Source of the DNA: an archaeon
GTDB lineage: Archaea; SpSt-1190; DYHY01
Length of the DNA stretch: 28,604 nt
Direction: 5' to 3'
NCBI GenBank assembly: GCA_037442745.1
Contig: JBBIPP010000015.1
Location: 1-28,604 of the forward strand
The position numbers and the translations under genes are program-made. Shown in pieces: positions 14,948 through 21,889 of this stretch (position 1 is its first letter; every line of letters starts with the position of its first letter). The notes under the pieces are model-generated. The model was not told the DNA's origin. It saw only the letters and a list, made by a program, of their open reading frames with translations, and ran no database searches.

Positions 14948-16201
14948 ATGGAGGGACTCGCAGAAAAGGCACGGGAGGAGATATTATGCTCTTCCGAGGG
15001 TAAGCGCATCTTTTCCGAATTCCCGGAGCTAGTCTTCCCAGACTATCGGAAGTTCTCAATTTCCAACATCGGCAATTCAATTCTTTCCTCTTTCGGATTG
15101 AAAGCGGGAAAGGGACGGGCGTTTGAAATTCCCCGTGCGGATTCCGGAAAAGTTGTCCTGATAGTAATTGACGGCCTTGGAGCGTCCCTCCTGAAAAGGG
15201 CTTTCCCGAAGATTTCCAAGAAGGCCGGGATATTGACGTCAGTCTTCCCCTCAACAACATCCTCCGCATACACCTCAATACTCAGGGGAGCCCCCCCTTC
15301 AGTCCACGGAATAACCGGATATTGGCAGAGGGATTCATCAGGGAATTTCGGGCAACTAGTGAAATACAAGAACCATCCGTTTTTCGAAAAGCTCTCACTC
15401 CCGAAAAATCCCGTGTCCTTGCTATTGGAGAATGGAGCGATTTGCGGAAAGCTTCTCTCGGAAAAAATACCTTGCACAACAATTGTCAAGAAGGAGTATG
15501 TCGGGCGGGAATTCTCGAAAATTCTCGGGAACCAGGATGAAGGCGTCTCGACTGTCCCTTTCTCAGGCTGTGCGAAAGACTTGGGTGACCAAATTTCCCG
15601 CGCAATCAAGGAGTCTCCAAAACAGGCATTCATAAGCGCTTATTATGACGGGGTTGATTCGGAGAGCCACTTGAAAGGGCCATATTCCCCGGAAGCTCTT
15701 GCCAAAGTCAGGAAGATTTTTCACTCGCTTAAAAGCGCCCTTTCGAATATCGGAAAGGAGACATTCGTTGCAATAACTGCGGACCACGGCCAGGTTCCGG
15801 TATTCAGGGAAAAAAACAGGCTATTTTATCGGAAAGACGAAAAGCTCGCCTCCCTCCTCTCAAGCCCCCCGGCAGGGGACAATAGAGCAGTCTATCTTTA
15901 TCCGAAAGAAGGATATGGAGATTCCCTCGGAAAGCATCTCTCGCGCTCGGAATTCTTCTCGCAGAATTTCGCAGTCTTTAGGTCAAAGGAGCTTGTTGAC
16001 GGAGGACTTTTCGGCCCAGTCCTGAAGAAAAACCGAAGGGAGCTTTATGCAAGGGTCGGGGAATTCGCGCTCCTCTCAAGGAACTCGTCCCAACTTGGCC
16101 ACACAGAGAAAGGAAGGCTTCTTGGGAACCACGGCTCGTTGACTGAGGAGGAAATATTTGTCCCCCTGATTGCAGGAGGAGCACGGGAGATTTTTCGATA
16201 A
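14948..16201 (+). CDS. Alkaline phosphatase superfamily nucleotide pyrophosphatase/phosphodiesterase
   Basis: VIDGLG, SVFPSTTSSA (Thr nucleophile), DSESH, ITADHG, GNHGSLTEEE. Confidence 0.9.
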   Translation: MEGLAEKAREEILCSSEGKRIFSEFPELVFPDYRKFSISNIGNSILSSFGLKAGKGRAFEIPRADSGKVVLIVIDGLGASLLKRAFPKISKKAGILTSVFPSTTSSAYTSILRGAPPSVHGITGYWQRDSSGNFGQLVKYKNHPFFEKLSLPKNPVSLLLENGAICGKLLSEKIPCTTIVKKEYVGREFSKILGNQDEGVSTVPFSGCAKDLGDQISRAIKESPKQAFISAYYDGVDSESHLKGPYSPEALAKVRKIFHSLKSALSNIGKETFVAITADHGQVPVFREKNRLFYRKDEKLASLLSSPPAGDNRAVYLYPKEGYGDSLGKHLSRSEFFSQNFAVFRSKELVDGGLFGPVLKKNRRELYARVGEFALLSRNSSQLGHTEKGRLLGNHGSLTEEEIFVPLIAGGAREIFR

Positions 16202-16259
16202 TTGCGTTCCAAGAAATAAAAAAACTCCGGACATTTTCATAATTCCATAACAATGTCGA

Positions 16260-16280
16260 CGGGGAAATTGGTAGCCCCGG
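16260..16280 (-). repeat. Direct repeat of the tRNA-Gln 3' end plus trailer
   Basis: CGGGGAAATTGGTAGCCCCGG (16260-16280) versus CGGGGAAAATTGGTAGCCCCGG (16339-16360), differing by a single A indel. Confidence 0.9.
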
Positions 16281-16348
16281 TCTCCCGTGTCTCCAGACAC
16301 GGACCTCGGCCAATGCCTCGGGATTCTTATTACTTGCCCGGGGAAAAT

Positions 16349-16424
16349 TGGTAGCCCCGGGCAGATTCGAACTGCCGTCCCGGGCTCCAAAGGCCCATAT
16401 CCTTGACCGCTAGACGACGGGGCT
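16349..16424 (-). tRNA. trnQ: tRNA-Gln(TTG), CCA encoded
   Basis: AGCCCCG...CGGGGCT ACCA, A1-U72 pair typical of archaeal tRNA-Gln, anticodon arm TGGGC-CT TTG GA-GCCCG, T arm GGCAG-TTCGAAT-CTGCC; TTATAAA box 27 nt upstream. Confidence 0.97.
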
Positions 16425-16468
16425 GTTAGTTCTGATTTGAGGAAATCCGGTTTATAATGTTTTAACAA

Positions 16469-16549
16469 GTTCCGGGCTCTTGAGCTCTAGAGAAATCCAG
16501 AGGAACGAAGGACAAAGGCCAATATCCCTGACCGCTAGACGACGGGGCT
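16469..16549 (-). pseudogene. Partial tRNA-Gln(TTG) copy with a 33-nt hairpin insert directly after the anticodon; no T arm or 3' acceptor strand
   Basis: 16513-16549 matches the first 37 nt of the tRNA at 35/37; insert spans 16480-16512; GAGCCCGGAAC (16469-16479) matches the next 11 nt at 10/11. Confidence 0.8.
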
Positions 16550-16689
16550 TTTGCGATTGTCTGCAAAAATCTTATCTGTATTTTCCAAGAAACGCCTGTC
16601 TGGGCGTCCGGATTGATATGTTGTTTTTTCAGGAAAAACTTCCCTTGACAAATCATCCTTAAAAACCCCCCCAACCGTCAAATTGCAAT

Positions 16690-17433
16690 ATGGTCAAAAA
16701 AGCCCTGAAATCCGCAGTGAAAAAGACCCGGTCAATCTTCTCCCGGAACTGGAAGGTGATTGGCGGGATTTTCCTGATGGTCCTAATGCTCGCCTCAGTC
16801 TTCGGGGGCCTAGTCCTCTCAGGAAACGAGCAGGCCCGGGGGCAAGAGGGGCAGAAATCCTCGGGAACGCATGTCGGAGTCGTGAACGGGGTTGATGTCT
16901 ACAAAATCGATGACACGGACTATTTCGCGAACCTGGGGGGAGTTGAGGTGCATTTCAGGGCTAACCCTGTTGTTGCAGCAGAATTCAAAATAGACGCCCG
17001 CCAGAAGCTGATACTCTCCTCAGTAATGAACGGCCCCGGAACGTTCGACATTGTCACGGGAAAGAAACTTTCCAAGGCATACATACTCATCGAGCCGGAA
17101 ACCCCGACAACCCCGAAAGCAACGGTTGCAGCAGCCGAGATTGCAACAGCTCTCGGAGCGAACCGTTGGGTGCCAGAGGTAGCCTTCACCCGCGAGTCCG
17201 TTCAGCAGCCGGGTTCGAAGGTGATAACAGTCTCCGATGCCCAGAACTTTTCGGAAGATGCAATAGTTTTCTATTTAGCGGTCTCCGAAGGGATTCCCTC
17301 GAACGCAACCCTCTACACATACCAAACTCCAGAGTCGAAAGGAGTCTCCCTTTTCCTGATAGGGAAGGATTTCCCAAATCTCGACATTGTTTCCGTTGCA
17401 GTGAAAATGTTCCTTCTCGGATGGACTGGGTGA
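16690..17433 (+). CDS. Membrane-anchored hypothetical protein
   Basis: Basic N-terminus and one TM (VIGGIFLMVLMLASVFGGLVL) followed by a soluble domain; first gene of a tightly packed run. Confidence 0.8.
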   Translation: MVKKALKSAVKKTRSIFSRNWKVIGGIFLMVLMLASVFGGLVLSGNEQARGQEGQKSSGTHVGVVNGVDVYKIDDTDYFANLGGVEVHFRANPVVAAEFKIDARQKLILSSVMNGPGTFDIVTGKKLSKAYILIEPETPTTPKATVAAAEIATALGANRWVPEVAFTRESVQQPGSKVITVSDAQNFSEDAIVFYLAVSEGIPSNATLYTYQTPESKGVSLFLIGKDFPNLDIVSVAVKMFLLGWTG

Positions 17434-19598: not shown

Positions 19599-21889
19599 CA
19601 GGACTCTCCTTCGGGGTGGAACCCTCGGAAATTGTCCTATATTCCGGAAAGGATTCGTTCAAGGTTTCGTCCTTCCACCCATATTTCTATTTCCTCGGAA
19701 AAAAAGAGCCCGAAAAAACAGAGGGAGTAATCAGAACAAGTGAGGAGAAAAAAGTCCGCCCATCAAAAGGGCTCCCAGAAGGGGAGAGGCTCTTCAAAAT
19801 ATTCGCCGACTCTCCCGGACGCGTCCCGGAAATAAGGGGCAAGTTTTCTGGCGGGACTGTTTTTGAGGCGGACATTCCCTTTATCCGGAGGTTCCTCCTT
19901 GACAATTCCCTCAAATTCTTCTCGGAAAAGGACCCTTCCTTTCTTATATTCGATATTGAAGTTTATTCAGAATCCTCCGGAATGCCAGATGCGAAAAAGG
20001 ACGAGATTGTAATGATAAGCTATTCTTTCTTCAGCGATGGCGCATTCGTTGAGGAACGCGTTCTCTCGGCAGTTCAGGGGAGAACCGAGGGGCCTCTTCC
20101 GGAATATGCGAGAGAATTCCCCTCGGAAAAGGCCATTATCGAGGAGTTTGTCTCAGTTCTCAGGCGCCTCGACCCACAGATAATTGCGGGATACAATTCG
20201 GACAACTTCGACTTTCCCTACCTATCTACTCGGGCGGAACTTCTCAAAGTTCCCCTTTTCCTGGGAACTGCCGAAAATTCCCGGCTTTCTTTCAAGAAGA
20301 GCCAGAGGATTTCGGCTGGAATCCCAGAGATTCCCGGAAGGCAAGTTGTCGATGTCTATCTTTTCGTCAGGTATATTGTCAGCCACGACCAATTGTTCCA
20401 TGCCCGGACACTCGACCTCGATTCTGTCGGAACTGAGATTTTCGGGGAAGGAAAGACTGACTTTGATTTCGAGGAGCTTCCGGAAATTATGCGGACCGGA
20501 AAAGGGGTCCTGAGATTTGTCGAATATTCCCTCCGGGACGCAAAAGTTACGGCGAGGCTCTTTGAAAAGTTCCTTCCCCTGATGCTAGAGCTCTCCCGCG
20601 CGCTATATCTCCCCCCGTCCGAAATTTCCCGCATGACATCTGGCCAGATTGTGGAGTGGTTCTTGGTGAAAGAGGCGCACGAGAGGGGGATTATTGTTCC
20701 GAACAAGCCCTCAAGCGAGGCCTCTCAGGAAAGGGATGAGCAAAGGTTCGAGGGCGCCTTCGTCCGCGACCCTGAAAGGGGTCTTCATGAGAAAGTCGCA
20801 GCCTGCGATTTCAGGAGCCTCTATCCCTCAATAATAATCAGCCACAACATTGCCCCGGAAACCTTCGGTAAATGCAACCATCAGGAATGCGCAGGGAACA
20901 TCTCGCCGACAGGAGACAGCTTCTGCCAGAAAGCCCCCGGGCTGATTCCAGTCTCGCTGAAAAAAATCGTGTCGGAACGGGCAATCCTGAAAAAGGAGCT
21001 GAACCTGACTGCTCCCGGTTCTCCTGAAAGGATTTCAATAAACGCGAAACAGGCGGCTCTGAAGCTTGTCGCAAACAGCTTCTACGGCTATCTCGGATAC
21101 CAGAACTCCCGATGGTATTCCTTTGAGGGCGCCCGCTCAACAGCTGGCTGGGGGCGAAAATACATCAAAGACACAATAAGCCTTGCTGAAAGGAGGAATT
21201 TCAAGGTAATTTACGGGGACACGGACTCAATATTCTTCTCATATGTCGGCAAAGACCTTCCTCCCGAATCCTTCGAGGACCGGGTGAAAAAATTCGTTTC
21301 CGAGATAAACGGGGCGCTTCCCGAGGAAATGGAGTTGGAACTCCAAGATATCTATTCCCGGGGGATTTTCCTTACAAAGAAAAGGTATGCGGTGATAACA
21401 ACCGATGGCCGGATTGTGATAAAGGGCCTGGAAAGGATACGGAGGGACTGGGCAGGGATTGCAAGAAGAACGCAGGAAGAAGTCCTTATGGCAATATTGA
21501 AGGAAGGGAATCCCGAAAAGGCTCGGGGAATTGTGGAAAAAGCGGTCTTGGACCTAAAAGAAAGAAAAGTTTCCCTAGATGACATTACAATATACACCCA
21601 GTTGACCAAAAAGCCGGGCCAGTACAAGCTAACATCCCCACATGTAGAGGCGGCGAAACTCTCGAAAAAGCCGATGAAGGCGGGAACTGTTGTTCGCTTT
21701 GGGATTGTGAAGGGAACTGGGATGATTTCCGCCCGGGCCAGACCCCTGGAACTCCTGACACTCGAGAACTATGACCCGGACTATTACATTGATAACCAGC
21801 TCCTACCGGCAGTTACGAGGATTTTGGATGCTGTCGGATATTCTGAAGACGCCTTCAGGAGCCAAAAGAAGCTAGATGGCTTTTTCTGA
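19541..21889 (+). CDS. polB: Family B DNA polymerase with 3'-5' exonuclease, no intein
   Basis: FDIE, GYNSDNFD and YSLRD exonuclease motifs; DFRSLYPSII, KLVANSFYGY, YGDTDS, KKRYA, KGLERIRRDW. Confidence 0.97.
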   Translation: MDSFEEELPEIPEKFRKFLTGLSFGVEPSEIVLYSGKDSFKVSSFHPYFYFLGKKEPEKTEGVIRTSEEKKVRPSKGLPEGERLFKIFADSPGRVPEIRGKFSGGTVFEADIPFIRRFLLDNSLKFFSEKDPSFLIFDIEVYSESSGMPDAKKDEIVMISYSFFSDGAFVEERVLSAVQGRTEGPLPEYAREFPSEKAIIEEFVSVLRRLDPQIIAGYNSDNFDFPYLSTRAELLKVPLFLGTAENSRLSFKKSQRISAGIPEIPGRQVVDVYLFVRYIVSHDQLFHARTLDLDSVGTEIFGEGKTDFDFEELPEIMRTGKGVLRFVEYSLRDAKVTARLFEKFLPLMLELSRALYLPPSEISRMTSGQIVEWFLVKEAHERGIIVPNKPSSEASQERDEQRFEGAFVRDPERGLHEKVAACDFRSLYPSIIISHNIAPETFGKCNHQECAGNISPTGDSFCQKAPGLIPVSLKKIVSERAILKKELNLTAPGSPERISINAKQAALKLVANSFYGYLGYQNSRWYSFEGARSTAGWGRKYIKDTISLAERRNFKVIYGDTDSIFFSYVGKDLPPESFEDRVKKFVSEINGALPEEMELELQDIYSRGIFLTKKRYAVITTDGRIVIKGLERIRRDWAGIARRTQEEVLMAILKEGNPEKARGIVEKAVLDLKERKVSLDDITIYTQLTKKPGQYKLTSPHVEAAKLSKKPMKAGTVVRFGIVKGTGMISARARPLELLTLENYDPDYYIDNQLLPAVTRILDAVGYSEDAFRSQKKLDGFF

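Follow-up and report, generated by a model that had tools for sequence, protein, structure and literature searches.

Contig JBBIPP010000015.1 of the archaeal assembly GCA_037442745.1 (forward strand, positions 1 to 28,604; this whole stretch of 28,604 nucleotides (nt) is called the window) carries on its minus strand an intact gene for a transfer RNA (tRNA), tRNA-Gln(UUG), nested among displaced pieces of its own 5' and 3' parts. Upstream stands a truncated copy of the gene with a short insert in its anticodon loop, and downstream a copy of the extreme 3' end lies behind another insert (Table 1). These fragments are very probably non-functional DNA by-products, or scars, around one working gene. 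Further, the locus is one case of a habit that marks about half (30-65%) of the sampled tRNA genes in four genomes of one archaeal order.

The window is contig C15 of a 1.14-Mb archaeal genome assembled in 20 contigs and 94.5% complete, referred to below as G000. Comparison genomes were drawn from the same genus (G001), the same family (G003), the same order (G004), the same class (G006, 3.6 Mb) and from another archaeon (G019). A closer relative is represented by a single metagenome locus, L279, in which a neighbouring protein is 92% identical to that of the window; its contig begins inside the mosaic, leaving the 3' side unseen. A further search for relatives of the locus returned one locus among genome contigs, probably that of G001, and one locus, L279, from one metagenome scan.

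The intact gene was called by ARAGORN and scores 56.3 bits as a tRNA in Rfam. With introns allowed, ARAGORN calls this gene alone in the mosaic, and Rfam returned no other RNA family in 15900-16900, neither at the gathering score nor at a permissive threshold. The displaced pieces emerge from a repeat search as repeat D1 (40 nt, 93%, 16388-16427 versus 16513-16552), which covers the 5' half, repeat D5 (11 nt, 91%, 16377-16387 versus 16469-16479) and repeat D2 (20 nt, 95%, 16261-16280 versus 16341-16360), which covers the 3' end and trailer. An initial annotation of this DNA had described a mosaic of tRNA-Gln fragments, and both the repeat search and the reading of the sequence find them in the minus-strand order it gave.

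Table 1. The tRNA-Gln mosaic in minus-strand reading order; nt numbers within the tRNA are linear, and L279 is the related metagenome locus.
Feature	Position	Strand	Support
Linear nt 1-37 of tRNA-Gln as a displaced copy whose last nt are the anticodon	16513-16549	-	35/37 vs intact gene
33-nt insert in the displaced copy's anticodon loop, immediately behind the anticodon	16480-16512	-	28/33 vs L279 insert
Displaced copy continued, linear nt 38-48, stopping at the T-arm start	16469-16479	-	10/11 identical
44-nt promoter/leader of the intact gene; TTATAAA at 16451-16457	16425-16468	-	37/46 vs L279 segment before the upstream copy
Intact tRNA-Gln(UUG), CCA encoded	16349-16424	-	ARAGORN, Rfam
Start of the trailer (10 nt), which recurs behind the second 3' end	16339-16348	-	Repeat D2
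58-nt non-repeated insert: T-loop remnant GAATC, 23-nt motif (16301-16323), hairpin (16285-16302, I12)	16281-16338	-	
Displaced 3' end: last 12 nt (16280-16269), from the T stem/acceptor stem junction, plus ~9 nt of trailer	16260-16280	-	Repeat D2

The intact gene is separated from its fragments by two intervals, of 44 nt and 68 nt. The initial annotation gave ~58 nt for the second; this holds for the non-repeated part, while the total is larger by the first 10 nt, which recur after the second copy. The closing CCCCGTCG, which it had read as a repeat of tRNA nt 3-10, is mostly repeated trailer, ATTT(T)CCCCG, with three more matching bases that are not beyond chance. The 33-nt insert forms a local hairpin at ~16485-16502 (z -2.0 when folded alone) and terminates in GCTCAA, like inserts beside other tRNAs; by eye it resembles the inserts after tRNA-Met in G000 and after tRNA-Arg(UCG) in G003. 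The hairpin of the 58-nt insert reaches z -2.4, and the repeat search found no inverted repeat linking the ends of this insert. The 3' part as a whole folds at z -0.13; apart from these two short hairpins, at z about -2, nothing in the mosaic folds conspicuously.

A tRNA of the intron-containing, split or permuted kind was considered as a candidate and finds no support: the upstream copy lacks a T arm, there is no partner half and no folding signal, and the working gene is uninterrupted. The exons needed for a cloverleaf are incomplete, since in the window as in L279 the upstream copy goes no further than nt 48, and downstream there are only 12 nt. When the 81-nt pseudo-copy is folded, its minimum-free-energy structure contains no bulge-helix-bulge and is no better than those of shuffled sequences (z +0.56), a statement about this structure only, no dedicated search having been made. 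Misassembly of the mosaic appears unlikely because the repeated pieces are short and diverged, and because the G001 and L279 assemblies independently share its 3' part and its 5' part, respectively.

The history of the 5' side can be read from L279, wherein the order is promoter, nt 1-37, 33-nt insert, nt 38-48 and TTG. The tRNA parts of its upstream copy equal the intact gene of the window at 48/48 positions, and its TATA box is perfect. As this copy is preceded by a promoter-like segment (37/46 identical to the promoter of the intact gene in the window), the 5' mosaic is, on the comparison of the two loci, a tandem duplication without filler; its unit of ~92 nt comprises the promoter and nt 1-48, and the event predates the split of the window and L279 genomes. 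The short spacer of the initial annotation is thereby the duplicated promoter and not foreign DNA. The window's upstream copy has decayed: it has 3/48 mismatches with two stem-relevant bases lost, and the region upstream of it is only 19/45 like the promoter. The 33-nt inserts of the two loci differ at 5 positions, and 3/7 pairs of the insert hairpin are broken in L279 by manual count, so the hairpin is not conserved. A simple tandem duplication lacking a conserved hairpin, the outcome that the initial annotation had set against its own reading, thus describes the 5' half of the mosaic.

The 3' side has a different distribution. The syntenic locus of G001 holds an orthologous 3' element, in which the same motif and a hairpin are followed by the tRNA 3' end, and positions 20-78 of the G000 flank align with positions 135-190 of that of G001 (44/62 identical). 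By eye, the old insert of G001 lies exactly between GAATC and nt 62 of the displaced copy, and its hairpin occupies the same place as that of the window with a different sequence. A newer unit adjoins tRNA-Gln in G001, with a perfect 45-nt repeat that runs from the T loop to the trailer. On its 5' side, G001 shows no more than a 5' fragment of 10 nt, accompanied by a 14-nt repeat; its sole TATA-like box stands upstream of this fragment (by eye). No 3' copy was found at the tRNA-Gln of G002 or G003; by eye, G003 has a degenerate upstream copy of tRNA-Gln with inserts of its own. With G001 sharing only the 3' element and L279 the 5' part, the view of the initial annotation that one integration cannot explain both sides is borne out. 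As the two sides differ in age and distribution, at least three events are needed.

The locus is not unique, and the same pattern occurs at about half of the tRNAs of the lineage. In G000, tRNA calling by ARAGORN with introns allowed gave 47 calls, one plainly false, and the remaining 46 tRNAs were scored for exact copies of their own ends of at least 10 nt, the 3' tail being sought within 250 nt downstream and the 5' head upstream. For the relatives, 30 tRNA loci were taken per genome and neighbouring tRNA genes were also caught, so that 32-35 tRNAs were scored in each. Copies of the gene's own 3' tail lie downstream of 19/46 tRNAs in G000, against 21/2070 (~1%) for non-self pairs, the latter being mostly isoacceptors or adjacent tRNA genes. 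Copies of the 5' head lie upstream of 7/46 tRNAs, against 11/2070 (~0.5%) for non-self pairs. The controls (tail upstream, head downstream, middle part and reverse complement) gave 0-1/46. The relatives of the order behave likewise, with 3' copies at 23/35 and 5' copies at 8/35 tRNAs of G001, 12/35 and 0/35 in G003, and 10/34 and 1/34 in G004; the distant genomes gave 2/33 (G006, both T-loop-only matches) and 0/32 (G019). An ungapped test of the 16-nt tail (self match of at least 13/16) gave 10/43 in G000, 14/33 in G001, 8/34 in G003 and 8/32 in G004, against 1/31 in G006 and 0/32 in G019, with non-self matches at no more than 2%.

In G000, three tRNAs have copies on both sides: Gln(UUG), Thr(CGU) and Gly(GCC). 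Arrays in which a tRNA end and an insert repeat perfectly were found at the Lys, Ile, Arg(CCU) and Arg(UCU) genes of G000, and perfect tandem arrays at the His, Pro and Arg genes of G003. A second tRNA-Gln of G000, with anticodon CUG (contig C9, 43469-43542), has no encoded CCA and no copied ends and sits in a strikingly AT-rich stretch. The copies also stay close to their genes: of the copies of at least 13 nt, 20 stand no more than 400 nt from their tRNA, and 32 lie further away against ~31 expected by chance (920 words x 2.27 million positions x 4^-13). As the far copies equal the chance number and those above chance are all within 400 nt, the events are intrinsically small, with no continuum of sizes.

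The junctions of 64 3' copies from the four genomes concentrate at two places. At junction 61|62, 23/64 copies start one nt past the 7-nt T loop (+1) and 6/64 at its end (0); at junction 56|57, 17/64 start at -4 and 5/64 at -5 relative to the T-loop end. Outside tandem arrays, the repeat stops within a few nt of the tRNA 3' end, and repeat length ranges from 10 to 82 nt. CCA occurs in copies only if it is encoded in the gene, which makes DNA, rather than mature tRNA, the source of the copies. For the 5' copies the end point falls at nt 10-25, in most cases within the D loop, the Gln copy ending instead at nt 48, and they are often directly followed by a hairpin of the form TCCGTG...CACGGA. Matches to this hairpin pattern in G000 lie within 300 nt of a tRNA in 22/40 cases, a zone of ~3% of the genome.

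The inserts are 30-140 nt long and draw on a small vocabulary of short modules. A comparison of 80 inserts gave 31 matching pairs (E<1e-3), in 20 of which the two inserts belong to different isotypes; pairs of a 5'-side with a 3'-side insert as well as both orientations are included. The Gln insert shares its 23-nt motif, at 96%, with the DNA after tRNA-Glu(CUC), and in opposite orientation the motif occurs after the Trp, Lys and Ile tRNAs; a strict pattern for it matches 15 genome sites, of which 7 lie within 260 nt of a tRNA (~3% of the genome). A different module pairs a T-rich hairpin (TTTTCTTTT..AAAAGAAAA) with a small CCGTTGACGGG hairpin behind it. It lies 3' of many G000 tRNAs (for example C7 ~17240-17290, C8 ~21520-21565 and C12 ~15175-15230), in the insert on the 5' side of tRNA-Cys, and where contigs end, and may be either mobile or a unit resembling a terminator.

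Some irregularities of the G000 assembly and its annotation also touch tRNA genes. The window and contig C4 of G000 both open with tRNA-Leu at the equal offset 13-97, followed by the same 12 trailing bases, and a run of N follows the copied end of tRNA-Met on contig C2 (~110360). As two contigs start alike at tRNA-Leu, the assemblies seem to break in repeats beside tRNAs. On the same contig C2 (121347-121458), ARAGORN called a 'tRNA-Stop(tta)' with a 35-nt intron; this is probably a miscalled intron-bearing tRNA-Lys(UUU), because its body and 3' end look like tRNA-Lys.

The surroundings of tRNA-Gln offer no obvious agent. The neighbours are housekeeping genes, namely those for a class I aminoacyl-tRNA synthetase (Ile/Leu/Met/Val group), eRF1, a phosphodiesterase (14948-16201), CDP-archaeol synthase and PolB; nearby lies an open reading frame (ORF) of 247 amino acids (aa) without known function (16690-17433). 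A Pfam scan of the 20 ORFs of the window found no integrase, in keeping with the statement of the initial annotation that none is nearby. In G001, the interval on contig C4 from the end of eRF1 to tRNA-Gln is without a match to the phosphodiesterase and measures ~880 nt against ~1400 in the window.

Elsewhere in G000, the only full tyrosine recombinase (PF00589) is a 426-aa protein with a zinc ribbon (contig C12, 40936-42216), whose gene lies 72 nt downstream of tRNA-Cys (40791-40864) and is followed by a C5 cytosine methylase and ORFs without assigned function, in a low-GC island (38-45% GC over ~11 kb, to ~52000). Judged from this sequence, the tRNA-Cys region is an integrated mobile element. 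Its other end did not show up, as neither a tRNA-Cys 3'-end copy at up to 3 mismatches nor a repeat by short-word BLAST was found. The C12 integrase family is widespread in archaea, with a same-strand tRNA just upstream in 35/72 loci, and G006 has a 21-nt copy (T loop to 3' end) between tRNA-Glu and an integrase gene of this family; tRNA-targeting integrases therefore do visit this class. The family gave no match in viral contigs, a single-protein scan of genome contigs returned only a distant bacterial match, and no homologue was found in G001-G004 at E<=1e-5 (assemblies 84-92% complete). PF00589 tyrosine recombinases are present in all 14 control genomes, and in six small genomes of the class (G001-G005 and G007, 84-94% complete) not even a XerA-like match was detected. 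Cas1 (PF01867) occurs in G000 on contig C3 (101153-101950) between ORFs of 185 aa and 90 aa at the contig end, a gene order that looks like an adaptation module of clustered regularly interspaced short palindromic repeats (CRISPR) whose array is unassembled. As no enzyme was found near the loci or in most assemblies, the agent lies outside the assemblies; viruses or plasmids that escaped binning may carry it, or repair may drive the process instead.

Based on these observations, the fragments around tRNA-Gln would record a succession of events. An older 3' event common to G001 would have placed a displaced 3' end behind a short insert made of the recurring motif and a hairpin; the ~92-nt filler-free tandem duplication common to L279 would have left a promoter-bearing 5' pseudo-copy upstream; and a 33-nt module would then have entered the anticodon loop of this pseudo-copy. 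For the lineage at large, we propose that non-autonomous DNA modules, short at 30-140 bp, enter tRNA genes at positions that code for loops, with duplication of the target segment. Selection would retain only products that keep one intact gene, which would be why 3' pieces lie only downstream and 5' pieces only upstream, and the displaced pieces would afterwards decay. The enzyme would act in trans, encoded away from the loci, and the leading candidate would be a tyrosine integrase of tRNA-targeting mobile elements. In favour of such an integrase are the position of the C12 recombinase behind tRNA-Cys, the tRNAs just upstream of many members of its family, the G006 copy beside tRNA-Glu, and the att (attachment) subsites and tandem islands described by Islander (PMC4383910). 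Signs of turnover are the decay of the window's 5' copy at 3/48 positions and the gain of the perfect 45-nt repeat beside the tRNA in G001. We infer this mechanism, a trans-acting, loop-targeted insertion of miniature modules with target duplication, with confidence that is evenly balanced. Of the three options in the initial annotation, repeated integration/excision scars come nearest to it, while the intron-bearing ancestral gene does not survive, its supposed copy stopping at nt 48 without a T arm and folding at z +0.56.

Various findings weigh against the proposed insertion mechanism. The inserts have no terminal inverted repeats (by repeat search for the Gln insert and by eye for the others), and the repeat length varies from 10 to ~92 nt, unlike that of a fixed-ruler transposase. 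Modules sit in T or anticodon loops without duplicated overlap, which a conservative site-specific recombinase would not leave, and D-loop breakpoints are absent from the att subsites named by Islander (PMC4383910). At tRNA-Gln itself, the 5' event has no insert between its two copies and is a plain tandem duplication. Further, the combination in L279 of a pristine copy and promoter with a diverged insert (5/33) is not what plain neutral decay predicts and requires gene conversion or some constraint. As to enzymes, a PF00589 tyrosine recombinase was not found in G001-G005 or G007 (84-94% complete), though G001 is the richest in copies and some of its copies are perfect; Cas1 was not found in the four closest relatives, G001-G004; and neither an HUH transposase (PF01797) nor TnpB (PF07282) was found in G000, a reverse transcriptase appearing only below threshold.

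One of the two main alternatives attributes the duplications to replication or repair, with breaks or template switches at the hairpin-forming, heavily transcribed DNA of tRNA genes, and with independent palindromic modules resembling repetitive extragenic palindromes (REPs) or MITEs (miniature transposable elements with inverted repeats) settling later in the dead copies. The filler-free tandem duplication on the 5' side of tRNA-Gln would fit this account, as would the perfect tandem arrays at several loci of G000 and G003 and the breakpoints at loops and stem boundaries, and a dedicated enzyme was not found in the assemblies. However, most loci repeat the tRNA end only, with a non-repeated insert in between, which is impossible for plain tandem duplication; two junctions that are sharp to the single nucleotide over many tRNAs and four genomes look enzymatic; and archaea with the same tRNA structures show nothing (G019, 0/32), so that we consider a repair origin unlikely. 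It is slightly less probable still that the fragments are attL/attR scars of shrunken, kb-sized integrase islands and the inserts their deletion leftovers. Elements of 9-23 kb are the textbook source of archaeal partial tRNA genes (PMC9897764, PMC3293823), G000 does carry an integrase island at tRNA-Cys, and the Gln 3' copy begins at the T/acceptor junction, which is an att subsite named by Islander (PMC4383910). Against such relics stand the lack of a size continuum (20 copies above chance, all within 400 nt and none at kb distance), the same short modules at different tRNAs and genomes, and the Gln 5' repeat, which holds a host promoter and no insert. Moreover, attR was not found even for the one real island, and an integrase was not found in G001-G004.

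The arrangement could also be functional: it might supply signals for processing of the leader or trailer, act as terminators or as decoy sites of attachment, or represent a tRNA that is split, permuted or intron-containing. The habit persists across order-level divergence, inserts diverge where the copies often stay perfect (44/62 identities in the 3' flank of Gln between G000 and G001), the hairpin of G001 keeps its place with another sequence (by eye), the upstream copy of L279 is pristine, and the position of the sole TATA-like box of G001, seen by eye, implies that its 5' fragment would be transcribed. We nevertheless judge function to be highly improbable: the same motif is found in both orientations and many copies have decayed, among them the window's 5' copy with its two lost stem-relevant bases and an upstream region that matches the promoter at just 19/45; L279 has a broken insert hairpin; the pseudo-copy has no folding signal (z +0.56) and no T arm, and the 3' piece is 12 nt; and G002 and G003 do without a 3' copy at tRNA-Gln. 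The faintest prospect is an integration of the Cas1/casposase type, in which the role of leader motif would fall to the T loop and that of the duplicated 'repeat' to the tRNA end, and the arrays would be CRISPR-like. Its appeal comes from the casposase of A. boonei, which targets the 3' end of tRNA-Pro with TCAAATC plus CC and a duplication of 14-15 bp (PMC6614799, PMC4779613), and from the copies themselves, the commonest of which starts with CC right after the T loop, with exact lengths that cluster at 13-15 nt. However, this copy length results from the distance between nt 62 and the tRNA end; Cas1 occurs in G000 alone, where it looks like an adaptation module, and was not found in G001-G004; there are no terminal inverted repeats; and the units of an array are identical, unlike successive acquisitions.

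Beyond the insertion mechanism preferred here, a bolder version of it is conceivable, although doubtful: an undescribed, still-active process may read the stem-loop geometry of any tRNA gene, cut at 56|57, at 61|62, in the D loop and in the anticodon loop, and insert non-coding modules of 30-140 bp with duplication of the end. If so, there would be CRISPR-like arrays of tRNA end plus insert without Cas1, and what is new would be either a class of tRNA-targeting integrative elements of miniature size or the activity of a recombinase, with unbinned viruses or plasmids as possible carriers. With its sharp cut positions and small substrates, such an active process would be directly testable in vitro, and it would bear on the disruption of tRNA genes in archaea and on repeat-insert arrays without CRISPR machinery. 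Partial tRNA genes usually mark kb-sized integrated elements, whereas here the same signature stands at about half of the tRNAs with inserts that are too small for elements; software for annotation or for finding islands would consequently misinterpret these genomes. The pattern also speaks for a DNA process, unrecognised so far and guided by tRNA structure, in a lineage whose genomes are very small and in which a tyrosine recombinase was not found in G001-G005 or G007.

A full-text literature search, whose coverage left out supplements and most subscription journals, returned no description of lineage-wide miniature inserts with copied tRNA ends. Known systems offer several points of comparison. 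Integration at a tRNA gene regenerates the gene and leaves a displaced fragment, with 3' fragments far outnumbering 5' fragments (3760 versus 159); tandem islands occur, and the att crossover subsites listed by Islander are the anticodon loop, the T loop and the T/acceptor junction (PMC4383910). In archaea, partial tRNA genes flank elements of 9-23 kb with repeats of, for example, 44 bp, and one of these elements, PYG1 of Pyrococcus yayanosii, sits at tRNA-Gln(TTG) (PMC9897764). The loci described here resemble such tyrosine-integrase islands in the pairing of an intact tRNA gene with a partial copy of the same orientation, in the dominance of 3' fragments, in tandem units, and in some of the breakpoints, those in the T loop, the T/acceptor junction (the Gln 3' copy) and the anticodon loop. 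Unlike the islands, the intervals here span 0-140 nt without integrase or cargo, and about half of the tRNAs are affected. Further differences from the islands are that 5' copies are common (7 against 19 3' copies in G000) with the host promoter inside 5' repeats, that the breakpoints of most 5' copies fall in the D loop, and that modules lie in loops without duplicated overlap.

Casposons provide a second comparison. The A. boonei casposase acts at the 3' end of tRNA-Pro and needs TCAAATC upstream together with CC at the start of a 14-15-bp duplication (PMC6614799), and casposons at tRNA-Leu in M. mazei carry 14-bp duplications, other Methanosarcina having tandem casposons that share one duplication (PMC4779613). 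The likeness lies in a target formed by the tRNA 3' end and read from a T-loop motif, a short duplication of ~14 nt starting with CC, and tandem units that share the duplication. However, there is no casposase here and there are no terminal inverted repeats, the repeat length is variable, the spacing from the T loop is 0-1 nt compared with 8 bp in A. boonei, and Cas1 was not found in four of the five genomes that show the pattern.

Disrupted archaeal tRNA genes share with the Gln locus an insert at or near the anticodon loop, and the displacement of a 5' fragment from an intact gene recalls the model for a tRNA-Thr fragment of Caldiarchaeum, which involves a 1.8-kb recombinase element (PMC3293823). 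Unlike in those genes, the copy here is truncated at nt 48 without a partner half, and no 1.8-kb recombinase element lies between the pieces. With MITE and REP repeats, the modules have in common that they are short, non-coding hairpins at many intergenic sites and in both orientations, but they lack terminal inverted repeats and a fixed target duplication, strongly prefer the flanks of tRNA genes, and no matching transposase was found. Taken together, the pattern departs from these systems in that the intervals hold neither an enzyme gene nor cargo, terminal inverted repeats are absent, repeat length varies, 5' repeats contain the promoter and junctions occur in the D loop; it shares with them its polarity, its loop-centred junctions and its arrays.

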